Source: an uncultured Candidatus Saccharibacteria bacterium (lineage in GTDB: Bacteria; Patescibacteriota; Minisyncoccia; Phycocordibacterales; UBA9973). From it: a stretch of 64,000 nt of DNA. The stretch lies in assembly GCA_964634365.1 (NCBI GenBank), contig CAZWJU010000001.1, positions 86,585 to 150,584 of the forward strand, given 5' to 3'. Position numbers and translations under genes: made by a program. The notes beneath the pieces were generated by a model that ran no database searches, had not been told where the DNA came from, and saw only the letters and a list, made by a program, of their open reading frames with translations. Below, in pieces: positions 1 through 58,329 of this stretch; positions within the stretch are counted from its first letter, which is position 1, and each line of letters begins with the position of its first letter.

Positions 1-3000
1 GAAGTAGATAGTTCAACAGGGTCTCTTGTTTATAATTATCCAATCTACACAGCTCCCGGAAGAAATAATTTAACTCCAGAACTTTCTCTTTCATACAATT
101 CATCCACAGTAAATAATACTTCGATTGCAGGATTTGGTTGGAATATAGGTATACAGAGTATTGAAAGACTTAATAAAGATGGCGTATATGAATTATACGG
201 AGAAGATAATTTTACGTCTTCCATGTCAGGTGAATTAATTGGGGTTGATGCTACCAATTATGTATCAAAAGTTGAATCTGGAGATTTTATTTCATATGCA
301 AAAAGTGGTTCTGGATGGATAGCAAAAGACAAGAACGGTACTGTTTATAGTTTCGGTCTATCTGCTTCTTCAAGACAAGATGATCCTTCTGATAGTTCAA
401 AAGTATACAAGTGGATGATTGATAAGATTGAAGATACTAATGGAAATACAATCATATTTGAATATACAAAAGATAATGGACAAATATATCCAAGTAATAT
501 TTCTTATGTGAACGATGCAGTGGGAGCTATGACTATGGATATAGATTTTACTCTTATTTCCAATAGTCATCCATACAAAGAATACAAAACAGGTTTTGCT
601 GTAAAGAATAATTACCTAATAGACCAGATAACTATGTCAGTGGCAGGTTCATGGTTTTTAAAATACGATCTTGATTATACATATAGTTACCCAAACAACA
701 GAGCCCTTCTTTCTTCTATAGAAACCACAGGTAGAGATTCATCTTTAAATGAAGTAACGCAGGATCCAGTTGAATTTGAATATCAGCAATGGAGTTCAAA
801 TTGGATCGAAGATACTACATGGGAATCTCTTTTTCCGTATTATTCACCATCTTTATCTATCGGTTCTTATTCCTTTGGCGAAATAAACGGAGATGGATTG
901 CTCGATGTTGTTTGTGGAAAAGCATATCTGGGAGGTTACTGTTCAAATGACAATCCTGTAGTTGCTATAAACAACGGTGATGGATGGGAATCTTCCACCT
1001 TTGGATTCCCGGAAAAACCAGATGTACCTACGCAAAGAGAGAGGTTTATAACTTCTAGTGGTGAAGATAGTGGGCTAAGATTTTTTGATGTCAACGGAGA
1101 TAATTTGACTGATTTTGTGAGATCGACTGCTGATGGTTCATATGTATATATAAATGATGGTACAGAATGGGTTTATGATGCTTCGTGGGATATGATCCTT
1201 CCTTTTTCTGGAGGATATACAATACCAGGATCTTATTCTTTTGGAGATGTAAATGGAGATGGCCTTATAGATGTTGCATGTGCACAGGGGCAGTCTGATC
1301 ATAATTGCAACACATCGAATCCTTATTGGACGCTCGTTAATACAGGGTCTGGTTGGGAAAATACTGAAAACTATGGAGGAAGTGACGCGCTCGTAAGTTC
1401 TACCGAAGAAGATACTGGGGTGAGAATGGTAGATGTAAACGGCGACGGTCTAGTCGATTTCATGCGTGCAAAAAATTCTGATAACGAAACTTATATAAAC
1501 ACAGGCAATGGATACGTTGTGGATCCAGTCTGGGACTCACCACTTCCTTTTGTCGATAGCCTTACAATCCCTGGCTCAATTTCTTTTGGAGACGTAAACG
1601 GTGACGGATTAATTGATATCGCATGTGCACAAGGACAATCGGATCATTACTGCAATACATCTAATCCACAAGATATATACATAAACAATGGTGCTGGGTG
1701 GTCGGCTCAACATGTATATGGTGGACCAGATTCTTTTGTTGATGAAAGCGAAGAAGATACTGGGGTAAGAATGATGGATATAAATGGCGATGGGTTAATG
1801 GATTTTATCAGATCATATGAATCTGGAGGTCTACAAACAGATGTAAATATAAACGGAGGATTGAAGACAGATTTACTAAAAACAATCACTTCTTCTTCTG
1901 GAGCCGTTGCTTCTTTTGAATATAAACCTAGTACTCAGTATTTAGATGGATCAGGGGATTTGTTAAACAGCACTCTCCCTATAACCGTAGATACAGTAAA
2001 TAGCATCACGACTGATGATGGTTTTGGGAATGAATCCACAGAAACTTATACATATGCAGATGGTTTTTATTATTTCAACACACCTCACGATCGTAAATTT
2101 GCAGGTTTTGGACTTGTTACAAAAAATGATGGAGTTGGAAATGTAACAAAAACATATTTTCATCAAGGTAATGTCACCGATACTGCAAATGGTGAATATG
2201 ACGATCATATTTCAAAAGCAGGAAGACCTTACAGGGTAGAAGAATATAACGACTCCAATGACTTATATCGTTTGACGGTAAATAAGTGGGATAAATATAA
2301 TATCGGAACTAATCATGATTTTGTAAAGTTAGTCAGGAGTACAATACTAAATTATGATGGTGACGCCGATCATAAAGATACTGCAACTGAATATACTTAC
2401 GATAATGCAAATGGAAATCTTCTAACTAGCATAAACTGGGGCGAAGTTACAGCTTCCACAGATGGGTCATTTACAGATACAGGTAGTGACAAGTCAACAG
2501 AGACATCAACCTATACTTCGAATATTGGGGCAAATATTTTAGGCCTTCCTTCGCAAATTACTACTGTCGATCAGTCTGCAAATAAGGTTAACGAAACTAG
2601 ATATTTCTATGACAATCAGACATTTGGCAATGTGACAGATGGAAATATTACAAAAGAACAAAAATGGGTTTCTGGTACAACATACCAGACATGGAAAAAG
2701 TCATATAATGCAAATGGAACAGTAGCAACTGAAACAGATCCAAGAAATAAGGTTACTGCCTACACAACATATGATTCATATGGATTGTATCCGCTAACAG
2801 TTACCAATCCATTATCACAGACAACAACATATTCCTATGATTACTCTTCTGGAAAAGCCATCGAAGTAACTGATGGCAACGGATCAAAAAAAGAAATGGT
2901 TCTTGACGGATTCGATCGTCCACTTGAAGAAAAAATTTCTGATCCAACCAGTGGAAGTCAGGTAACCAAGACTACATATGCATACAACGATACATCTTTC

Positions 3001-5670
3001 CCGCATTCCGTTACAAAGAATGATTATCTTGATTCAACAATTGCTCGAACATCTTATTCATATATAGATGGACTTGGACGAACAGTACAGGTAAGAACAG
3101 AGATGGAGGATTCTGGAGACTACTCAGTTAAAGATACTGTATACAATGAGCTTGGATTGGTGGAAAAAGAATCTTTACCATATACGGATACTGGGTCTTC
3201 ATACGAGTCTCCTACAGGGACTACATCGCTGTATACGAATTACACATATGATGCTCTTAAACGTCCGCTTACAATCGCAAATAATCTTGGGACAACAACA
3301 AATTCATACGATCAATTGATGACTACCACTACTGATCCACTAGGAAAAGTGAAAGATTATATCAATGATGCACGAGGAAATCTAACTAGTGTTGTTGAGC
3401 ATGATGGAGCGAGTTCATATACCACAAACTATGAATGGAATTTAAATGGAATGCTTACTAAAATTACTGATTCTTTGTCAAACATAAGAAACTTCACTTA
3501 TGACGGTATTGGCAATAGATTAAGCGCAGAAGATTTACATGCTGTCGGAGATGCAACATTTGGTGCATGGACCTATTCTTACGATGCTTCTGGAAACATG
3601 GCACAGTCTGTTTCTCCAAAGGGTGATACTGTGAATTACACATATGATGATATAAATCGACAACTTACAGAGAATTGGACAGGAGGAACAGGAACTGAGA
3701 TCACCTATACATATGATTCATGCACCGAAGGAATAGGATATCTTTGCTCTGCAACTGTTTTAGGAGGAGTGGCAACTACATATGTTTATACTCCAAATGG
3801 ACTCATAAAGTCGGATACAAGAACAATTTCAGGAACTGGATACACAACTTCTCGTATTTATGACAGACAAGGAAGTATCACACAAATGCAACTCCCAGAT
3901 TCATCACAGATGAGGTATACCTCCAACTCTGCGGGACTAAAGGAGACAATGCAGAAAAAAGAAGTTGGAGGAAGCTGGACCAATGTCCTTACTGACATCG
4001 ATTATGCACCAACAGATCAAGTTGCATATCTTGCATACCAAAATGGAGTGACAACAACAAATACTTTTGATTCGACAAAACTCTATCGTCTCACAAATAA
4101 AGTGACTGCAAAGACGGGTGGCTCAACATTCCAAAGCATTGCATATACATATGACGCTGTTGGCAATATCACAAATCTTGTTGATAGTGGTGCAACAGGA
4201 GGAGCAAAGACATTTGCAATGACATATGATAACCTCCATCGTCTCACATATATAAATGCAACAGGTCTCGGAACAGGAACTGCGTACAATCAGACTTTCG
4301 CATATAACTCAATCGGAAATATCACTTCCGTCACAGGTACTGGAGGAACTCTCTATCCTACAACCCAATACAACGGTTTCGCTGGTTCAAGTTATGCGAA
4401 CCCTCATGCCGCAACAAAGATAGGAGGAGTAAACCGTACATATGATCAAAATGGAAACATGTTAGGTAACGGTACTCTAACTAATACTTGGAATTACAAA
4501 AATGAATTGACACAAACAGTTGTAGGAGCAAATACCATGAGTTATACATATGACCACAATGGTGATCGTATGACATATACAAATCCAACTGTAACTACAA
4601 TTACTCCAAGCAAAGAATATGAAGTTACAGGAACCCTTAAAAAGAAATCACTTTATCTTGGTGATGAACTTATCGCAACAACTGAGGATAATGCAGGTAC
4701 AATCACTCCTCACTATGCTCATACAGATCACTTGTTTGGTTCATCAGTCATGACCTCAAGTACAGGAACACAGGATGAACTAGTAGACTACTATCCATTC
4801 GGAGAAGGTAGAGTAGATACTCTTGCGGGCTCTTTCAAGGAACGTCATAAGTTCACAGGACATATCAGAGACGAAGACACTGGACTTGAGTATGCAAAAG
4901 CGAGATACTTGAATACGAAGTATAATCGGTTTATTTCGCAGGATAAAGTGTTTCAGAGTTTGGGAGACAAACAAAGAACTAATGAGTTAAGTGGTCAAGA
5001 TGATCAACTAATACTTCAAGATCCACAATCTTTAAATTCATATGCATATGCAAGAAATAATCCGTTCAAGTACGTTGATTATGATGGAAATTGGTATAGT
5101 GAATTCTTGAGTGGACACCAATCAACTTCAAGTTTTGTTGGAGAAGTTGGGAATGCGGCTGCTCATCTTGGTCCAACCTGGCAATCTGCTATGAATCATC
5201 CCGTTGCTACAGGCGCGATTGTAGGTGTAGGAGCTGGTGCGGTGGCTCTGGGAGGATCGGTAGGAGCTACGGCTTTAAGTGCCGAGTTGCTTGGTAGTGC
5301 AGGAACTGCTTGTGTTGCAGCATGTGGTAATATACAAAAAGTAATTCAAGAGTCCCCGCAGTCTCTTGGAAAAGCCGGAGAAGTTGCTTCAGGTTTAGTG
5401 AAAAATACACAAAGAATTGAGTCTGCAACAGGGTCTGCAAAATATAGAATACCTGATGGATTGGATCATGCGAATAGAATTATTAGCGAAGTTAAAAATG
5501 TTAATCAGCAAAGTTTAACTAGTCAAATAAGAGACTCAATTATCTACTCTCAGAGAAATGGTTATAGATTTGATCTATATACAAGATCGACAACACAAAC
5601 TTCAGGACCACTTAAAGATTTAATTAGTAAAGGTCAGATTGTATTAAAAAATCTTGGTAATATAAAATAG
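1..5670 (+). CDS. Rhs/YD-repeat polymorphic toxin, 5'-partial (continues upstream of window). SpvB-like N-terminus, FG-GAP/VCBS-type repeats, RHS repeats, RHS-associated core and C-terminal PD-(D/E)xK-like nuclease tip
   Basis: Frame 1 is open from base 1, so the ORF is truncated by the window edge. N-terminal SIAGFGWNIGIQSIERL resembles the SpvB/TcB N-domain. Repeated FGDVNGDGLIDVACAQGQSDH units are FG-GAP-like. Dozens of YTYDxxGN(L/M) YD/RHS repeats follow. RHS core end ...NTKYNRFISQD...YAYARNNPFKYVDYDGN has a degenerate DPxGL motif. The final ~190 aa contain a Gly/Ala-rich hydrophobic stretch, then RIPDGLD...ISEVKNV, a PD-(D/E)xK-like motif. Confidence 0.85.
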   Translation, partial: EVDSSTGSLVYNYPIYTAPGRNNLTPELSLSYNSSTVNNTSIAGFGWNIGIQSIERLNKDGVYELYGEDNFTSSMSGELIGVDATNYVSKVESGDFISYAKSGSGWIAKDKNGTVYSFGLSASSRQDDPSDSSKVYKWMIDKIEDTNGNTIIFEYTKDNGQIYPSNISYVNDAVGAMTMDIDFTLISNSHPYKEYKTGFAVKNNYLIDQITMSVAGSWFLKYDLDYTYSYPNNRALLSSIETTGRDSSLNEVTQDPVEFEYQQWSSNWIEDTTWESLFPYYSPSLSIGSYSFGEINGDGLLDVVCGKAYLGGYCSNDNPVVAINNGDGWESSTFGFPEKPDVPTQRERFITSSGEDSGLRFFDVNGDNLTDFVRSTADGSYVYINDGTEWVYDASWDMILPFSGGYTIPGSYSFGDVNGDGLIDVACAQGQSDHNCNTSNPYWTLVNTGSGWENTENYGGSDALVSSTEEDTGVRMVDVNGDGLVDFMRAKNSDNETYINTGNGYVVDPVWDSPLPFVDSLTIPGSISFGDVNGDGLIDIACAQGQSDHYCNTSNPQDIYINNGAGWSAQHVYGGPDSFVDESEEDTGVRMMDINGDGLMDFIRSYESGGLQTDVNINGGLKTDLLKTITSSSGAVASFEYKPSTQYLDGSGDLLNSTLPITVDTVNSITTDDGFGNESTETYTYADGFYYFNTPHDRKFAGFGLVTKNDGVGNVTKTYFHQGNVTDTANGEYDDHISKAGRPYRVEEYNDSNDLYRLTVNKWDKYNIGTNHDFVKLVRSTILNYDGDADHKDTATEYTYDNANGNLLTSINWGEVTASTDGSFTDTGSDKSTETSTYTSNIGANILGLPSQITTVDQSANKVNETRYFYDNQTFGNVTDGNITKEQKWVSGTTYQTWKKSYNANGTVATETDPRNKVTAYTTYDSYGLYPLTVTNPLSQTTTYSYDYSSGKAIEVTDGNGSKKEMVLDGFDRPLEEKISDPTSGSQVTKTTYAYNDTSFPHSVTKNDYLDSTIARTSYSYIDGLGRTVQVRTEMEDSGDYSVKDTVYNELGLVEKESLPYTDTGSSYESPTGTTSLYTNYTYDALKRPLTIANNLGTTTNSYDQLMTTTTDPLGKVKDYINDARGNLTSVVEHDGASSYTTNYEWNLNGMLTKITDSLSNIRNFTYDGIGNRLSAEDLHAVGDATFGAWTYSYDASGNMAQSVSPKGDTVNYTYDDINRQLTENWTGGTGTEITYTYDSCTEGIGYLCSATVLGGVATTYVYTPNGLIKSDTRTISGTGYTTSRIYDRQGSITQMQLPDSSQMRYTSNSAGLKETMQKKEVGGSWTNVLTDIDYAPTDQVAYLAYQNGVTTTNTFDSTKLYRLTNKVTAKTGGSTFQSIAYTYDAVGNITNLVDSGATGGAKTFAMTYDNLHRLTYINATGLGTGTAYNQTFAYNSIGNITSVTGTGGTLYPTTQYNGFAGSSYANPHAATKIGGVNRTYDQNGNMLGNGTLTNTWNYKNELTQTVVGANTMSYTYDHNGDRMTYTNPTVTTITPSKEYEVTGTLKKKSLYLGDELIATTEDNAGTITPHYAHTDHLFGSSVMTSSTGTQDELVDYYPFGEGRVDTLAGSFKERHKFTGHIRDEDTGLEYAKARYLNTKYNRFISQDKVFQSLGDKQRTNELSGQDDQLILQDPQSLNSYAYARNNPFKYVDYDGNWYSEFLSGHQSTSSFVGEVGNAAAHLGPTWQSAMNHPVATGAIVGVGAGAVALGGSVGATALSAELLGSAGTACVAACGNIQKVIQESPQSLGKAGEVASGLVKNTQRIESATGSAKYRIPDGLDHANRIISEVKNVNQQSLTSQIRDSIIYSQRNGYRFDLYTRSTTQTSGPLKDLISKGQIVLKNLGNIK

Positions 5671-5674
5671 TAAT

Positions 5675-6076
5675 ATGGAAAATATAAAGGAGTTGCAGAT
5701 AACATTAACAGACCTTGCGGTAAAGGTTGCATTGTTTTATAAAGTGAAACTTGATTTTTCTTTAAACTCAGTAAAAAAAGTTGAAGATGTTTTATCAAAA
5801 ATAAGCGAAGAATACAAAAAAAATCAGAACGAGGAAGGTATAGAAGGCATTGCTCTCGAGTTTGCCGCATATATTATCACTGTTATCGAGAGGAATTTGC
5901 TTTTAGGTAAATGGCAACGAGACTCAGAATTAGGAAAGGATACATTTCCATATGATCTTGGAAATAACAATTATATTTTCCCCTATGCATGGTGTCAAAA
6001 AAGAATATTTGATGGCGATGAAGACAATGTTTGGCAAAAGTTTAAAACTTTGGTTTTAGATAAGTATCAAAATTAA
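5675..6076 (+). CDS. putative cognate immunity protein of the Rhs C-terminal toxin (133 aa, no recognisable family)
   Basis: Starts 5 bp after the toxin stop on the same strand. Small acidic cytoplasmic protein. This is the canonical toxin-immunity gene order of polymorphic toxin loci. Confidence 0.4.
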   Translation: MENIKELQITLTDLAVKVALFYKVKLDFSLNSVKKVEDVLSKISEEYKKNQNEEGIEGIALEFAAYIITVIERNLLLGKWQRDSELGKDTFPYDLGNNNYIFPYAWCQKRIFDGDEDNVWQKFKTLVLDKYQN

Positions 6077-52709: not shown

Positions 52710-53069
52710 TTGTGGGATGATAGGGCCATGGAACCAAGGTTTGAGGAACTAAAGGCGAGAATACAGAAATTCTGTGATGACCGTGACTGGTCGCAATTTC
52801 ACGATCCGAAAAACCTTGCTATTTCACTCAATTTGGAAGCTTCAGAAGTCCTCGAACTCTATCAGTGGACAAAGGACAATCAACTCAAACCTGAACGCGC
52901 TGGAAAGATAAACGAGGAACTCGCGGATGTTTTCTATTGGCTTATCATGCTTTCAAATCACTACAAGATAGATCTTCTCGAAGCTCTACAAAAGAAAATG
53001 GACGAGAATGAGACAAAGTATCCTGTAGAAAAAGCGAAAGGAAATTCCGCAAAATATAACGAACTATAA
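52710..53069 (+). CDS. MazG-like nucleoside triphosphate pyrophosphohydrolase (small all-alpha NTP-PPase)
   Basis: LKARIQKFCDDRDWSQFHDPKNLAISLNLEASEVLELYQW and EELADVFYWLIMLSNHYKIDL match the MazG/HisE-type EExxE/D motifs. First gene of a 5-gene same-strand cluster. Confidence 0.7.
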   Translation: MWDDRAMEPRFEELKARIQKFCDDRDWSQFHDPKNLAISLNLEASEVLELYQWTKDNQLKPERAGKINEELADVFYWLIMLSNHYKIDLLEALQKKMDENETKYPVEKAKGNSAKYNEL

Positions 53070-53070
53070 A

Positions 53071-54651
53071 ATGTCAGAAATTCAGTCATTCAAATTTAAC
53101 AAAGATTATTTTCATCAAATACGAGAATATCGCTTTGGTAAAAATTGGCCTGCTGTTTATATTATCGAAAACAAAAAAGAAGTGTACGTTGGCGAATCGA
53201 CGAGTGTATACAGCAGAAGTCGACAGCATTACGACAATCCAGAACGCAGAAAATTAAATACGATTCATGTTCTCAGTGATGAAGAATTCAATAAATCAGC
53301 AGCACTCGATATAGAGTCATGGCTTATACAGTACATGTCCGCAGATGGAGTATTTACTCTTCAAAATGGAAACGGTGGGATGCAAAACCACAACTATTTT
53401 GATAGAGAAAAATACAAAGCAAAATTTGAACTTGCTTGGGAAAAACTCCGAAAACTTGGTCTTGCTCGTAATACTCTTACAGATCTAAAAAATAGTGATC
53501 TATTTAAATATTCACCTTACAAAACTCTGACTGAGGATCAGCTTGTTGTTGCAGAAGAAATATACAAATACATAAAGTCGGGAGAAAAAAGAACTATTAT
53601 CGTAAACGGTAAGCCTGGTACAGGGAAAACAATTCTTGCAACTTTTCTTTTCAAGTATTTGAAAGAGCAAGAAGAAACAAGGAATCTTTCAATTGCTTTG
53701 GTGGTGCCTATGACGTCGCTTCGTCAAACTGTAAAAAAGGTTTTTAGTAAAATAAAAGGCCTTTCTGCTTCGATGGTTATTGGTCCAAATGAGGCGACTC
53801 AAAAATACTATGATTTGCTTATTATAGACGAAGCACACCGCCTGCAAAGAAGAAAAAATATTATGGGAATGGGTGCATATGACAATATAAACAGACGACT
53901 TGGTCTCGGAAAAGAAAATACTCAGCTCGACTGGATAGTGAGGTCTTCAAAGAATCAAATATTTTTCTATGATGAAAACCAAAGTGTAAAACCATCAGAT
54001 GTAAGAAGTGAAGATTTCAAAAAACTTAATGCAAAGCACTACACACTCACAACTCAAATGCGCGTTGCAGCGGGGGAAGAGTATATCGAATTCATAGAAA
54101 GTGTATTTGACTTGAAACCTATAAAGAAAAAGGATTTTGGAGACTATGAATTCAAAATATACGACGACATCCACAAAATGTTTGCGGATATAAAAGAAAA
54201 AGACAAAAAGCATGGACTTTCTCGTGTGGTTGCTGGCTATGCTTGGCCATGGCATACAAAACCGGGAAGAAATTCTTCACAAAAGCATGATATTGAGATC
54301 AACGGACTCAAGGCTGTTTGGAATTCGACTGCGACTGATTGGGTTAATTCTAAGAATGCTATCAACGAAGTTGGTTGTATCCACACAGTACAAGGTTATG
54401 ATCTTAATTATGTTGGAGTAATAATTGGCCCGGAGTTTGGTTATGATCCAGATAAAAAGAAGTTTTTTGTAGACAAAGAAAAATATTTTGATAGAAATGG
54501 TCGAGCAGGAATTCAAGATCCAGCGGAGCTCGAGCAATACATAAAAAATATTTATAAAACACTTCTAACAAGAGGGATAAAGGGTACGTTTATTTATATA
54601 AGTAATGATAATCTTAGAAAGTATATGGACTATTTTTTAAACCAACGTTAA
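53071..54651 (+). CDS. GIY-YIG nuclease domain fused to DUF2075-like (Schlafen-helicase-like) P-loop ATPase
   Basis: N-terminal PAVYIIENKKEVYVGESTSVYSRSRQHY plus downstream R/E/N residues is GIY-YIG-like. Walker A IVNGKPGTGKTILA, Walker B LLIIDEAHRL. 526 aa. 2-nt gap from the MazG-like gene. Confidence 0.7.
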   Translation: MSEIQSFKFNKDYFHQIREYRFGKNWPAVYIIENKKEVYVGESTSVYSRSRQHYDNPERRKLNTIHVLSDEEFNKSAALDIESWLIQYMSADGVFTLQNGNGGMQNHNYFDREKYKAKFELAWEKLRKLGLARNTLTDLKNSDLFKYSPYKTLTEDQLVVAEEIYKYIKSGEKRTIIVNGKPGTGKTILATFLFKYLKEQEETRNLSIALVVPMTSLRQTVKKVFSKIKGLSASMVIGPNEATQKYYDLLIIDEAHRLQRRKNIMGMGAYDNINRRLGLGKENTQLDWIVRSSKNQIFFYDENQSVKPSDVRSEDFKKLNAKHYTLTTQMRVAAGEEYIEFIESVFDLKPIKKKDFGDYEFKIYDDIHKMFADIKEKDKKHGLSRVVAGYAWPWHTKPGRNSSQKHDIEINGLKAVWNSTATDWVNSKNAINEVGCIHTVQGYDLNYVGVIIGPEFGYDPDKKKFFVDKEKYFDRNGRAGIQDPAELEQYIKNIYKTLLTRGIKGTFIYISNDNLRKYMDYFLNQR

Positions 54652-54663
54652 TTTTTAAGTGTA

Positions 54664-55734
54664 ATGAAGCTGATACATCAAAGTGAAAAATATTTAAGAT
54701 ATTCCAGACGAATCGCTCGGAAAGCTGAAAAGCATAGGCTTCGCAACAAAAATAGAGATAAGTCTGAACGCATAATTACCGCTAAAATGTCTCCAAAACA
54801 GAGACAAGAGTGGAATGCAAAAAAGCAATATAAAGCGGTAGTAAAAGCTCCTGTGAATTTATCTTTTCTCGATGACCCAGAATCAGTAACCGAATTTATA
54901 ACTAAGACAGAAAAAATTATTCAAGGTAGTCCATCTTTGTACTTTGATATGCGACAAGTAAGAAAGATCGATTACCCTACAATAGCAGCACTTCTCGCAG
55001 TTACGTACCGCTCAGTAAAAAGTGGTATAAAAATTAACGGTAATTTTCCAGATGACAATACATCGAAAAGTATTCTTATGAAATCTGGATTTTTATATAC
55101 AATGTTCAGTAAAAATCCCGATGCAGGCCATAAACATGATATCAATGCTGATAATCAGTTGTTTACGTTAGATACGGCCGATCTAAAGGTTGTTGCTGAG
55201 ATAATTAAGTATGTCTCGATAGCTCTTTTTTCAAAAGAAAAAAAGCTTCCTGGATTAAAACTGATTCTGGGTGAACTAATGGATAACACAAGAAATCATG
55301 CTGCAAAATCACCCAATGTCCCTGAAAGATGGTGGTTATCAATAAATTACGACCGTAGTTTTAAAAAGGTTAGTTTTGTATTTATAGACTATGGTGTTGG
55401 GATATTTACCAGTCTTTCACAAAAAACAGAAGATCACGCAGTAAAGCGTTTATGGCTTAAGGCACAATTAATTTTTGGATCAGAAGCTACAGATAGACAT
55501 TTAAAAGCAATAGTTACAGAATCTGCTGGAAAAATACATAAACTTCCCGGTGGGCACGGTCAAGGTATTTATGGTATATACCAGTCTCTTCAAAGATCAG
55601 AAGTCGAGAAACTTTTTATTATAAGCAATAACGCCTTTGGTAATATTAGAGATGATGATTATAAAAAATTAAGGAACGAACTAAATGGAACATTGTATTA
55701 CTGGGAGATTTGTGATAAGAATATAAATTTATAG
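54664..55734 (+). CDS. GHKL-superfamily ATPase (histidine-kinase/RsbW-like HATPase_c) with possible N-terminal STAS-like region
   Basis: N-box ILGELMDNTRNHA, G1 box FVFIDYGVGIF, G2 box GGHGQGIYGI. Basic N-terminal 50 aa. Region 60-130 (VNLSFLDD...DYPTIAALLAV...GIKINGNFPDD) is STAS-like. Confidence 0.55.
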   Translation: MKLIHQSEKYLRYSRRIARKAEKHRLRNKNRDKSERIITAKMSPKQRQEWNAKKQYKAVVKAPVNLSFLDDPESVTEFITKTEKIIQGSPSLYFDMRQVRKIDYPTIAALLAVTYRSVKSGIKINGNFPDDNTSKSILMKSGFLYTMFSKNPDAGHKHDINADNQLFTLDTADLKVVAEIIKYVSIALFSKEKKLPGLKLILGELMDNTRNHAAKSPNVPERWWLSINYDRSFKKVSFVFIDYGVGIFTSLSQKTEDHAVKRLWLKAQLIFGSEATDRHLKAIVTESAGKIHKLPGGHGQGIYGIYQSLQRSEVEKLFIISNNAFGNIRDDDYKKLRNELNGTLYYWEICDKNINL

Positions 55735-55746
55735 TATAATAAAATT

Positions 55747-56079
55747 ATGATAGTTATATCAGTAGCCAAAGATTTCTCTAAAACCCCAGGCTTTAGATAC
55801 AGAAGTCAGAGTCCAGATACTTCTGGAGAACAATTTAGAGACGAGATTCTTGAACCGAAGTATCTAGAAGCTGTTTCAAATGGAGAAAAACTTCAGGTCA
55901 TTTTGGATGGCACTGATGGGTATCTTACTAGTTTTATTGAAGAGTCTTTTGGTGGGCTACAGAGAAAAAATTCTAAAAATAATATTCTCAATTCTATTGA
56001 AATAATCTCAAATGATGAAAGGCACTGGATTGAGGATATAAAACGCTATGTCAAAGAAGCTCTCGAAAAATCAAAATAA
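55747..56079 (+). CDS. small STAS-like protein (DUF4325-like)
   Basis: 110 aa. PGFRYR...GEQFRDEIL...LQVILDGTDGYLTSFIEESFGGL fits the DUF4325 pattern (G.R...GE.FR, v.lDf.gv.g.sSSF.dE.fg.L). Confidence 0.5.
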   Translation: MIVISVAKDFSKTPGFRYRSQSPDTSGEQFRDEILEPKYLEAVSNGEKLQVILDGTDGYLTSFIEESFGGLQRKNSKNNILNSIEIISNDERHWIEDIKRYVKEALEKSK

Positions 56080-56668
56080 CTACCTATTCTCTATTTTGGT
56101 AGGGGTTTTTTTCGGATCCTTAACCTTTTTTATACTATTTGCTTCATTCAATTCTTTTAGGGTAAATACAGAAATTAGTTTTGGGGTTAATCCAATTGAT
56201 TTTATTTCGCTTTTAATTAATACAATTTTGGTGATGTATGTGTTGCGGACTCTTAGTCGTAAAGATGATAATGATAAGGTCGAGCGAGAATTACTCATTG
56301 GATATTTTACTAAATTTGAAGATGACTTCAGTAGTGGTATCCATAGAATGACCTCTTCCTGTGGTATTGAAGGAGAAGAAGTTTCGGCTTTTTTTAAAAA
56401 ACATAGCATGTATCTACAAGAACTTATAGACTTATCAGAAGATCATCGGCCAGAAAATGCCCCAAACTTAGGATCTTTACAATCTAGTTTTAGTGAAATT
56501 TTAGACCTTTTATCTAATACTCCTCGTGAGGGAGAAATTGAAGATGGAGTACGTATAGAAAATGGTTATATTTTTTATTCCCCACGACATCTAGCAGAAA
56601 TTACTAAAAGTATGGGAAAATTTAAAAAAGCAGTATTTAATGTTAGTGTTTGTATAAATAGATCTTGA
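56048..56668 (+). CDS. hypothetical 2-TM membrane protein (206 aa), last gene of the cluster
   Basis: Start overlaps the end of the DUF4325-like gene. Two N-terminal TM helices, then a soluble C-terminal domain. Confidence 0.4.
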   Translation: MSKKLSKNQNNYLFSILVGVFFGSLTFFILFASFNSFRVNTEISFGVNPIDFISLLINTILVMYVLRTLSRKDDNDKVERELLIGYFTKFEDDFSSGIHRMTSSCGIEGEEVSAFFKKHSMYLQELIDLSEDHRPENAPNLGSLQSSFSEILDLLSNTPREGEIEDGVRIENGYIFYSPRHLAEITKSMGKFKKAVFNVSVCINRS

Positions 56669-56763
56669 TTTTTTAAATACACCCAACAAGTTTTTACCTT
56701 TCCAAATTATCACTTCTTATATTTACAGAACGAATAATTTGATTATATACTTGCTAAATAGCT

Positions 56764-56784
56764 CTTTAATAAAATGACAGAGGG
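56764..56784. repeat. left copy of 21-bp inverted repeat CTCT(T/C)TAATAAAATGACAGAG flanking the yegP-like gene
   Basis: CTCTTTAATAAAATGACAGAG here; reverse complement CTCTCTGTCATTTTATTAGAGAG at 57123-57145. Confidence 0.6.
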
Positions 56785-56925
56785 TAAGGCCATTTCCGGA
56801 TAATTTTGGACTTTATCTACTTAGAAGGTCCCGGATAGATACTTTGAATAACTCAAGGTCTTTATTCGGGGATCCATTCTAGGTCGATACCCCAATTTAC
56901 TAGAAAATAATCTTTAAATAATTTT

Positions 56926-57105
56926 ATGAAATTTGAAATTTATAAAGATAGCCGTGGTGATTTCCGGTGGAGATTCGTTTCTTCAAATGGAAAAATCATT
57001 GCAGACGGTTCTGAAGGTTATTCTTCAGAAGCAAATGCTATTAATGGTATTAATATCATTAGAGAATACGCGGCTGGTGCAAAAATCTATCGACTTAACT
57101 ATTAG
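56926..57105 (+). CDS. YegP/DUF1508 (UPF0339) family small protein
   Basis: Absent from the ORF track (59 aa). MKFEIYKDSRGDFRWRFVSSNGKIIADGSEGYSSEANAINGINIIREYAAGAKIYRL matches the DUF1508 repeat (F...DK.G.YRFRL.A.NGE.IA.SEGY.SK..A..GIESVK.NA). Confidence 0.7.
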   Translation: MKFEIYKDSRGDFRWRFVSSNGKIIADGSEGYSSEANAINGINIIREYAAGAKIYRLNY

Positions 57106-57122
57106 TTAATTGATAGATGAAA

Positions 57123-57145
57123 CTCTCTGTCATTTTATTAGAGAG
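57123..57145. repeat. right copy of 21-bp inverted repeat; also forms a local hairpin/terminator after the yegP-like gene
   Basis: CTCTCTGTCATTTTATTAGAGAG followed by TTTCC. Confidence 0.6.
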
Positions 57146-57222
57146 TTTCCGCTATGTACAAATCTTGTTTTGCTAGTTATGCATTTAAAACTTAATTTTT
57201 TGATACAATTAGATTGTAATTT

Positions 57223-57519
57223 ATGATCAAAGAATACATGCAATATCTGAAAGGTAATCCGGAGAGGTTGTGGTTCAAGCGCAAGCTCTATGGCTGGGGT
57301 TGGACTCCGGTTACATGGCAAGGGTGGGTTGTGATACTTATATACGTCGCACTTGTGATGCTCTTTGCCTTTACCATCGACGAAACTTCACCTACTCGCG
57401 AAGTAGTCTTCACTGGCATGTTGCCCATAGCCATACTGACATTTGCGCTTATCCGTATCTGCTACCGGTTCGGCGAGAAGCCTCGCTGGCAATGGGGAAA
57501 AGTGAAAGAAGATAAATAG
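57223..57519 (+). CDS. small membrane protein (98 aa)
   Basis: Two hydrophobic helices. Preferred over the overlapping alternative-frame ORF. Confidence 0.4.
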   Translation: MIKEYMQYLKGNPERLWFKRKLYGWGWTPVTWQGWVVILIYVALVMLFAFTIDETSPTREVVFTGMLPIAILTFALIRICYRFGEKPRWQWGKVKEDK

Positions 57520-57595
57520 TAAATTTAAAAAAGTTATTTTGAAAAAATTGAATTTAATTAAATTGAACCCAACTCATCCATCCTGTATATCATTC

Positions 57596-57620
57596 TAGCA
57601 TTTTGCAAAATTACAAAATG
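57596..57620 (+). promoter_or_regulatory. palindromic promoter/operator motif AGCATTTTGCAAAATTACAAAATG (copy 1), 30 nt upstream of the DUF1801 gene
   Basis: Contains the inverted repeat CATTTTG/CAAAATG and the perfect palindrome TTTTGCAAAA, followed by an AT-rich -10-like box. Confidence 0.5.
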
Positions 57621-57649
57621 TCATAATTATTTAAACACAAAATATATCA

Positions 57650-58009
57650 ATGCAAACATATAAAAACATAAACGAATATATAAAAAACGTTCCGAAGGAG
57701 CATGTGGCGCGGGTGCGGGAGATGCGAGCGCTTTTGCAAAAGCTTGTGCCGGACGGAGAGGAGGCGATACGCTACGGTATGCCGACGATGCAGATCGAGG
57801 GCAAGAACTTGCTTCACTATGCAGCGATGAAGGGTCACTTCGGATTTTATCCCGCACCATCTGGTGTAAAAGTGTACGAGAAAGAATTGAAAGCAAAGGG
57901 GATAGAGTATTCAAAAGGTTGTATCCGTTTTCCATACGACAAGCCTCTGCCCGTGGCACTCATCCAGAAGATCATCAAATTCCGCCTCAGTGAAATAAAC
58001 AAAAAATAA
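57650..58009 (+). CDS. DUF1801 (YdhG/YdeI-like) domain protein, GC-rich gene
   Basis: KNINEYIKNVPKEH...RVREMRALLQKLVPDGEEAIRYGMPTMQIEGKNLLHYAAMKGHFGFYP matches the DUF1801 pattern. Coding region is much more GC-rich than its neighbours. Confidence 0.65.
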   Translation: MQTYKNINEYIKNVPKEHVARVREMRALLQKLVPDGEEAIRYGMPTMQIEGKNLLHYAAMKGHFGFYPAPSGVKVYEKELKAKGIEYSKGCIRFPYDKPLPVALIQKIIKFRLSEINKK

Positions 58010-58018
58010 ATTATCATT

Positions 58019-58044
58019 TCAGCATTTTGCAAAATTACAAAATG
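58019..58044 (+). promoter_or_regulatory. palindromic promoter/operator motif (copy 2), 19 nt upstream of the ArsR-family gene
   Basis: TCAGCATTTTGCAAAATTACAAAATG followed by ATATAAAAT. Confidence 0.5.
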
Positions 58045-58062
58045 ATATAAAATATATTTAAT

Positions 58063-58329
58063 ATGGATTTTAGAAAAATTGAGAGAATCGCAAAAGGTTT
58101 CGCAAACAAGCGTAGGCTTGAGATTCTGGAGCTCTTGGACCGCAAGCCAGAACTTTCAGTATCTGATATATCAGAAAAATTGAAGCTAGGCTATGAAAAT
58201 ACCTCTGACCATGTGCGCAAAATGACTTCTGCAGGACTCCTCATGAAAAGAAGTGATGGTCCAAATATCCGCCACAGACTAACTCCTCGCGCAAAAGACA
58301 TTCTAGCATTTTGCAAAAAGCTGAAATGA
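58063..58329 (+). CDS. ArsR/SmtB-family winged-helix transcriptional regulator (88 aa)
   Basis: NKRRLEILELLDRKPELSVSDISEKLKLGYENTSDHVRKMTSAGLL is the ArsR-type HTH. Confidence 0.75.
   Translation: MDFRKIERIAKGFANKRRLEILELLDRKPELSVSDISEKLKLGYENTSDHVRKMTSAGLLMKRSDGPNIRHRLTPRAKDILAFCKKLK
58301..58328 (+). promoter_or_regulatory. partial third copy of the motif (TTCTAGCATTTTGCAAAAAGCTGAAATG) overlapping the 3' end of the ArsR gene
   Basis: Shares TTCTAGCATTTTGCAAAA with copy 1, then GATATAAAT. Lies upstream of the DUF1761-like gene. Confidence 0.4.

Follow-up and report, generated by a model that had tools for sequence, protein, structure and literature searches.

Two nearly complementary sequences flank a small YegP/DUF1508 gene in the DNA analysed here, a 64-kb window (the whole stretch of 64,000 nucleotides) of contig CAZWJU010000001.1, and the question raised by this locus is whether they act as DNA, like the ends of a mobile cassette, or as RNA. 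YegP/DUF1508 is a widespread domain of unknown function; stress induces it in E. coli, and recent work has placed it beside immune-pathway regulators and inside antiphage proteins. The probable answer is that the repeats are the two halves of a conserved RNA helix of 24-26 bp that joins the 5' and 3' ends of a highly folded YegP mRNA, the whole being an autonomous portable unit. A small gene bracketed by an inverted repeat need not mean a mobility scar. The two arms and the gene lie as follows.

56760-56785, + strand: left arm, the 5' strand of the closing helix, AGCTCTTTAATAAAATGACAGAGGGT, pairing with 57122-57147 (repeat search, covariation)
56926-57105, + strand: single-domain YegP/DUF1508 (UPF0339) gene, 59 aa (Pfam PF07411, PDB relatives, selection on the coding sequence)
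57122-57147, + strand: right arm, the 3' strand of the closing helix, ACTCTCTGTCATTTTATTAGAGAGTT, also capable of a local hairpin at 57119-57149

The inverted repeat

The repeat search returned one pair, at 56762-56785 and 57122-57145, which is 24 nt long, complementary at 22 of 24 positions (92%) and separated by 336 nt. Both mismatches are transitions that give G·U pairs in RNA of the + strand, and with G·U counted the helix extends over 56760-56785 and 57122-57147 with all 26 positions paired. The exact 16-nt core TAATAAAATGACAGAG has only two sites in the 64-kb window, namely both arms. About 0.12 matches to this core, allowing up to two mismatches, are expected by chance, and two or more were found in 1 of 100 shuffles; the repeat is beyond chance because it is kept at 13 other loci. 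The inverted repeats of 21 bp described in an earlier note on this DNA are therefore real, but the left copy, CTCTTTAATAAAATGACAGAG, begins at 56762 and not at 56764, a shift of 2 nt, and the right copy is an inexact reverse complement, with one T/C difference within the 21-mer and another in the extension, both of them G·U.

Homologous modules

A scan of the GTDB species genomes with the YegP protein yielded one close relative, locus L002 in a Candidatus Nomurabacteria metagenome-assembled genome (MAG; 71% identity), and 24 distant ones. In L002 the arms occupy equivalent positions and the 5' leader is recognisably conserved, the similarity to the window starting at the left arm and ending at the right arm. 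Further modules were gathered by protein searches, from the contigs of exact protein matches and by one DNA-pattern scan of metagenomes. The resulting set comprises 14 distinct full modules (the window, L002, L027, L030, L032, L033, L034, L035, L036, L038, L039, L041, L042 and L044), to which L037 adds a 5' fragment only. The unit is about 390 nt long, and the YegP proteins of the 13 further loci are 54-90% identical to that of the window. The named hosts are Candidatus Nomurabacteria, Candidatus Paceibacterota or ‘Patescibacteria group’. From these names the window, too, very probably belongs to a Patescibacteria (CPR) genome. Both arms, the leader hairpin and the open reading frame (ORF) are present in 14 of 14 loci, and the parts follow one another in the order promoter, left arm, hairpin of the 5' untranslated region (5'-UTR), YegP ORF, stop-codon hairpin and right arm.

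Each fetched locus has one copy of the module, as does the 64-kb window, a count that covers the window and the fetched loci; the earlier note had proposed to look for more copies in the genome and in related genomes, and within the window a 16-mer search with 2 mismatches and an nhmmer search with the module profile found no extra copy. Among viral contigs (IMG/VR), two DNA patterns gave no match, and none of the 79 DUF1508 loci identified by protein profile has the arms or the leader. The module is likewise absent from GenBank phages and PLSDB plasmids (blastn, distant mode). In 17 distant cellular DUF1508 loci the pairing between the 5' and 3' flanks is at chance level, and arms and leader are lacking, which rules out the arms as a general DUF1508 feature. 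The flank pairing and the RNA architecture are specific to the Patescibacteria module clade. Rfam 15 gave no gathering-score match on the module in the window, only noise with E>1 in 56600-57300, and no match at E<=0.1 on the module in 9 homologous loci.

Covariation of the arms

Covariation was evaluated in an alignment of the 14 sequences (A4) by RNAalifold and by explicit pair counts. The closing helix consists of 24 pairs, 13 of which have changes on both sides, and 96.7% of its cells are paired. For the whole structure of 69 pairs this value is 95.0%, falling to 39-52% once the 3' partners are slid by 1-3 columns. The observed covariation measures were matched by none of 500 column shuffles, a 9-sequence version of the alignment gave the same picture, and the closing helix is found in the minimum free energy (MFE) fold of all 14 modules.

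The strand on which the helix operates can be read from its wobble pairs. An A·C cell on one strand is a G·U pair on the opposite strand, and the + strand of the closing helix contains 24 G·U cells against 4 A·C. The fold of the + strand is also better than that of the - strand by 7-54 kcal/mol in 14 of 14 modules. The compensatory changes and the G·U/A·C asymmetry identify the closing helix as a sense-strand RNA structure, not a DNA-level repeat; at DNA sites of a transposase, recombinase or repressor, neither base-by-base compensation nor strand asymmetry is expected. The arms are 71-81% identical, the base of the leader hairpin about 85% (84-86%) and the coding sequence 72%, while the proportion of synonymous differences in the ORF (pS) is 0.68, near saturation, so that the non-coding helices are under stronger selection than synonymous sites. 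The complementarity of the mRNA ends is thus kept by selection on RNA.

The same observations bear on the possibility that the module is an inverton, in which the repeats would be recombinase crossover sites flipping the gene relative to an outside promoter. The 336-bp segment between inverted repeats, with a promoter just outside the left arm, has the appropriate layout, and in L002 an upstream gene for a 437-aa serine recombinase stops 18 bp short of the left arm. However, the module points the same way from its promoter in 14 of 14 loci, only one of which has an adjacent recombinase, and the strand asymmetry and base-by-base compensation indicate RNA pairing, which makes an inverton highly improbable.

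Predicted promoter and boundaries of the unit

A promoter is predicted immediately upstream of the left arm.

56722-56751, + strand: predicted sigma-70-type promoter, with -35 box TTTACA at 56722-56727, an 18-nt spacer and -10 box TATACT at 56746-56751 (10 of 12 matches)

The predicted transcript start is at about 56758-56760. The gap between the end of a -10-like hexamer and the first paired base is 3-14 nt across the 14 loci and 7-8 nt in nine of them, and the -35 boxes TTTACT and TTTACA recur. This spacing of the -10 box predicts a +1 that coincides with the first base of the helix or lies no more than a few nucleotides from it. In every one of the 14 loci the conserved promoter (-35/-10) stands outside the left arm, at a distance of 8-45 nt; the conserved unit therefore reaches upstream past the left arm, and the arms are not its termini.

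The position of the promoter is one of several points on which a DNA transposon cassette fails. In this explanation, put forward in the earlier note as a cassette similar to a miniature inverted-repeat transposable element (MITE), the arms would be terminal inverted repeats recognised by a transposase and YegP would be cargo. Such an element is suggested by the short segment flanked by a 24-nt inverted repeat, by the 14 different contexts, several of them mobile or defence islands, and by a three-gene operon shared by the window and L034 that stands before the module in one and after it in the other. It does not predict arms that change by compensation with G·U almost entirely on the sense strand, nor a promoter lying outside them. 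The target-site duplication that the earlier note had suggested looking for just outside the repeats was sought in 56400-57600, where no direct repeat flanks the unit, and the outer flanks differ at every locus. The single copy in the window and the conserved coding gene inside, with a ratio of non-synonymous to synonymous substitution rates (dN/dS) of about 0.15, are unlike MITEs with their non-coding interior, and a transposase is adjacent to the module in no locus. The cassette is largely refuted and keeps only a slight chance of being correct.

The 3' boundary was considered in relation to another proposal of the earlier note, a duplicated bidirectional terminator. An ordinary gene would then be enclosed by symmetric intrinsic terminators, each arm forming a local hairpin that insulates one side. 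The right arm of the window does fold alone, as the note had claimed for each copy of the repeat (57119-57149, 10-11 bp, -17.7 kcal/mol), and a T-run directly follows the right arm in about 6 of the 14 loci. Nevertheless, a scan of 56000-58200 gave no terminator site, and in the window there is neither a T-run nor a separate downstream hairpin at the right arm. In 12 of the 14 loci the right arm forms at most a weak local hairpin (-1.4 to -7.7 kcal/mol), the left-arm hairpin reaches only 0 to -4.4 kcal/mol, the left arm lies downstream of the -10 box and inside the predicted transcript, and the covariation is between the arms, not within them. Twin terminators are accordingly very unlikely. 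The earlier note had associated an ordinary gene of this kind with repeats that occur only here and are conserved together with their flanks; the repeats and the gene are indeed kept in all relatives, but conservation does not extend to the outer flanks.

The self-hairpin of the right arm would compete with the closing helix in the window. It is lineage-specific, only L030 having a weaker equivalent. The closing helix followed by a U-tract was considered as a universal terminator and rejected, as this combination holds in about 6 of the 14 loci only. A weak minus-strand promoter-like site (TGTACA-17-TAAAAT, 9 of 12 matches) is located within the right arm of the window, at 57160-57132 (-); transcription from it would enter the 3' end of the gene in the antisense direction.

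The leader hairpin and the fold of the whole mRNA

Inside the closing helix, three further elements are predicted at the leader, the start codon and the stop codon.

56819-56884, + strand: long conserved 5'-UTR hairpin of about 27 bp, ACUUAGAAGGUCCCGGAUAG ... UUCGGGGAUCCAUUCUAGGU, with a sequence-conserved base and a variable apex (RNAalifold)
56910-56949, + strand: weak A/U-rich start-codon hairpin (AUCUUUA ... UAAAGAU), tentative (MFE fold of the window)
57085-57118, + strand: hairpin with the stop codon at its apex, AUCUAUCGACUUAACUAUUAGUUAAUUGAUAGAU (local fold -12.5 kcal/mol, z -3.6)

The 5'-UTR hairpin has 27 pairs, 16 of them compensatory, with 95.2% of cells paired in the 14 sequences. 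Its cells include 56 G·U against 5 A·C, and one G·U pair is invariant in 14 of 14. Just one other leader helix was found, a short and weakly supported pairing of G-rich and C-rich segments that encloses the hairpin. The 7-nt complement of the start-codon hairpin is retained at 6-7 of 7 positions in 9 of the 14 loci; this hairpin is not judgeable by covariation, since its 3' side is fixed by the Y-K-D codons. Equivalents of the stop-codon hairpin, differing in sequence, occur in all 14 loci (-8 to -19 kcal/mol), and several coding-region helices also covary. The module of the window folds at -142.5 kcal/mol compared with -85 for shuffles (z -11.4), and the 14 modules fold at -127 to -156 kcal/mol (z -7.5 to -12.1). 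The A/U-rich translation start is predicted to be the sole weakly structured region of the mRNA.

An mRNA of this anatomy could be a switch of the hok/Sok or aapA/IsoA type, in which pairing of the 5' and 3' ends keeps the message inert until its 3' end is trimmed and an antisense RNA is the partner. The hok mRNA is of the same build, with about 400 nt, a small ORF, a long-distance stem between the 5' and 3' ends and a location on mobile DNA (PMC9841398). However, the module encodes a soluble DUF1508 domain instead of a small hydrophobic toxin, and the closing helix leaves the start region unsequestered. Pairing of the left arm with the start-codon region, which a repeat of the window (I21) had suggested, is no better than in shuffles in 14 of 14 loci (z -0.9 to +1.4) and was rejected. 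Furthermore, every helix contains sense-strand G·U, and no conserved antisense promoter was seen in a scan of the window only. A switch of this type is improbable.

The YegP gene

The 59-aa ORF, which the earlier note had assigned to the YegP family, is genuine. It matches Pfam PF07411 (DUF1508) over profile positions 1-47 of 48, i.e. the full-length domain, with E 2.8e-16 and 59.6 bits (cut-off 22), and it is under purifying selection, as indicated by the median dN/dS of about 0.15 over the 14 sequences. Its relatives in the PDB are 3BID (3e-17), 6Q2Z (4e-16), 2K7I and 2K8E, and it matches three PHROG families of unknown function, phrog_1422 among them. An overlapping 58-aa ORF with a TTG start in another frame (56933-57109) is unsupported.

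In L035 (positions 1960-2265) the gene callers' YegP start, giving protein P0007 of 101 aa, is too far upstream and runs through the structured leader, as does that of P0124 (89 aa); the conserved start in L035 is an internal ATG at 2095, giving 56 aa, and the long call is an artefact of the open leader frame. Several tandem DUF1508 coding repeats were found by nhmmer on an archaeal contig, at 2859-3686 of L012 (Euryarchaeota MAG).

Proposed role of the closed mRNA

The favoured reading, an mRNA clamped at its ends, would involve a unit of about 430 bp with its own sigma-70-type promoter, a transcript of 388 nt and a single-domain YegP/DUF1508 gene. The repeats would be the 5'- and 3'-terminal stretches of this mRNA, and their pairing over 24-26 bp would close the entire molecule, with the 27-bp 5'-UTR hairpin, the coding-region hairpins and the stop-codon hairpin inside. 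Such a terminal clamp would leave neither a 5' nor a 3' single-stranded end. Attack that depends on the 5' end (RppH, RNase E, RNase J) is hindered where that end has no unpaired nucleotides, and 3' exonucleases make little headway against a 3' end held in a long duplex. The clamp should therefore prolong the life of the YegP message, protecting it from 5'-end-dependent and 3'-exonucleolytic decay. The closing helix could also act as an RNase III site for processing or decay that sets the amount of YegP, because a near-perfect duplex of 24-26 bp, i.e. more than 20 bp, meets the length requirement of this enzyme.

A long-lived message would fit a protein family described as stress-induced. DUF1508 is present in stress-induced genes and forms homodimers (10.1101/2024.11.21.623966), and capK/capS regulators of the DNA-damage response have yegP downstream in 57 cases (PMC13373217). 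The base of the UTR hairpin is probably a protein-binding site, given its sequence conservation. YegP itself is possibly the binder of its own leader, a candidate suggested by the likening of tandem DUF1508 to the sPC4/Whirly fold, which binds single-stranded nucleic acids (PMC12065111).

Several points weigh against the end-clamped mRNA. The role of YegP as a leader binder is speculative, and the transcript ends, the stability of the message and its cleavage are predicted. The closing helix does not overlap the ribosome-binding region, and a direct effect on translation is thus not evident. All 14 sequences are related, so that the shuffle statistics overstate their independence. The promoter was predicted in AT-rich DNA where -10-like hexamers are common, with 8 sites in the region against 7.7 expected. 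With a T-run directly after the right arm in some loci only, the true 3' end elsewhere may lie past the helix, and in L002 a separate hairpin with a T-run, resembling a terminator, stands a few nucleotides beyond the right arm.

In a further reading, which we regard as unlikely, the unit of about 390 nt is an undescribed RNA-protein module of mobile and defence islands in Patescibacteria, and the RNA fold itself is functional. The RNA might serve as sensor or decoy, or YegP might bind it as its cognate ligand in an autoregulated ribonucleoprotein that answers phage infection or stress, possibly in cooperation with the operon for HATPase-like, DUF4325 and membrane proteins that accompanies the module in two loci. 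This proposal is based on the location of nearly all nucleotides outside the start region in covarying helices, on a 5'-UTR hairpin that is conserved above the protein, and on the sPC4/Whirly-like fold. If true, it would be the first functional handle on the YegP family.

As for the end-clamped mRNA, literature searches on DUF1508, YegP and UPF0339 gave no RNA element or motif described for the gene family. The module offers a candidate new cis-acting RNA motif for an uncultivated phylum and, in the binding of YegP to its own leader, a concrete hypothesis for a family without known activity.

Genomic neighbourhoods

Flanks were compared by tblastx with the module masked in ten loci (nine of the first round and L037), and by called genes in the five later loci. 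Shared flanking genes were found by tblastx in the window and L034 only, and the five later loci have different called genes. The two loci share a three-gene operon, at 54664-56668 of the window, where it is upstream of the module, and at 500-2524 of L034, where it is downstream. The first gene codes for a protein of 356/364 aa with a sub-threshold HATPase_c match only (E 0.048) and a match to phrog_3364 at 1.5e-29, the second for a DUF4325 STAS-like protein, and the third for a membrane protein of about 206 aa. The operon and the module could be functionally linked or could form a circularly permuted mobile element. PADLOC gave no match for YegP and, for the three operon proteins, only a marginal JetA match of the DUF4325 protein (E 0.0039).

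Immediately upstream of the operon in the window (52710-54651) are genes for a MazG-like pyrophosphohydrolase (Pfam 9e-15) and then a 526-aa Schlafen-group-3 helicase, whose N-terminus is weakly GIY-YIG-like and which is similar to Nhi and AbiO in PADLOC (about 1e-16). This pair is of defence type. The neighbours of modules at other loci are listed below.

L002: serine recombinase, tRNA-Glu and tRNA-Ser
L027: LexA/S24-DNA methylase fusion
L032: S49 protease and large unknown proteins
L034: rolling-circle Rep protein
L035: Cap4 nuclease
L038: D12 methyltransferase
L039: S24 peptidase
L041 and L044: ordinary genes, e.g. for ribosomal protein L27

In L002 (2498-4542) the module is inserted between the serine recombinase gene and the 3' end of tRNA-Glu, with tRNA-Ser beyond, a layout as expected at the edge of an integrated element. 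The earlier note had taken the adjoining candidate defence operon as consistent with a scar of recombination or mobility. Its view of the setting holds in that the unit is portable and that the neighbourhood differs at each of the 14 loci, several being defence- or mobile-element-like, but the arms are not mobility ends. The unit behaves as a portable, moron-like gene.

A highly structured RNA with terminal inverted repeats beside defence-type genes could also recall a retron-like non-coding RNA, the arms being the a1/a2 repeats around msr-msd. However, no gene for a reverse transcriptase (RVT family) occurs in any of the 14 neighbourhoods, no Rfam retron family is matched, and the interior is a protein-coding gene under purifying selection, which leaves a retron next to no credence.

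Two known RNAs were detected near homologous modules. In L034 a LOOT RNA (Rfam RF03000, 75 bits, gathering 46) is located at 2994-3109 (-), between a DUF559-like gene and an unannotated gene of 292 aa; the Rep-like gene follows about 1 kb further downstream, and this small contig also carries the YegP module. In L036, a Candidatus Nomurabacteria-type contig, an S-adenosylmethionine (SAM) riboswitch (RF00162, 55.8 bits) is located at 5793-5902 (-), about 2.5 kb from the module.

Comparison with known systems

Like E. coli YegP (2K8E) and the single-domain proteins 3BID and 6Q2Z, the product of the window ORF consists of one full-length DUF1508 domain. The module is unlike the other YegP/UPF0339/DUF1508 loci compared, the distant cellular and the viral ones, none of which has the arms or the UTR hairpin.

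MITEs and other small elements with terminal inverted repeats are similarly short segments bounded by a repeat of about 24 nt, but the module is single-copy in the window, has a gene inside and its promoter outside, lacks a target-site duplication and shows covariation of the RNA type. Phage morons are autonomous units of promoter, gene and terminator inserted among other genes. The module resembles them in being self-contained, with its own promoter, and in occupying unrelated neighbourhoods that include prophage-like and defence regions. It differs in its absence from catalogued phage, viral and plasmid records and in the conserved structure of its whole mRNA, which morons lack.

Inverted repeats that flank a gene and form RNase III processing stems are known from the 16S and 23S rRNA precursors, phage T7 early mRNAs and lambda sib, the canonical substrate of the enzyme being a duplex of at least 20 bp. 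In the module, too, gene-flanking sequences pair into a duplex above this size, a likeness in length only, but its stem begins at the predicted +1, while theirs are placed within a longer precursor.

The closest parallels in anatomy are type I toxin mRNAs. In Helicobacter, the aapA1 toxin mRNA is closed by a long-distance interaction between its 5' and 3' ends. The closed form of hok mRNA (hok/Sok, plasmid R1), encoded on mobile DNA, is likewise held by a 5'-3' long-distance stem (PMC9841398). These mRNAs and that of the module are about 400 nt long and very structured, encode a small protein and pair their extreme ends into a stem. In the module, however, the helix is much longer and does not control access to the start region, the 5' arm has no alternative partner, an antisense RNA is not evident, there is no sequence relation, and the product is a soluble DUF1508 protein instead of a membrane toxin. 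Closure of an mRNA by 5'-3' pairing is thus already known; new here are the length of the helix, the gene family, the phylum and the structure of the whole mRNA, and the module offers a clean, testable case of bacterial mRNA 5'-3' end pairing outside type I toxin systems.

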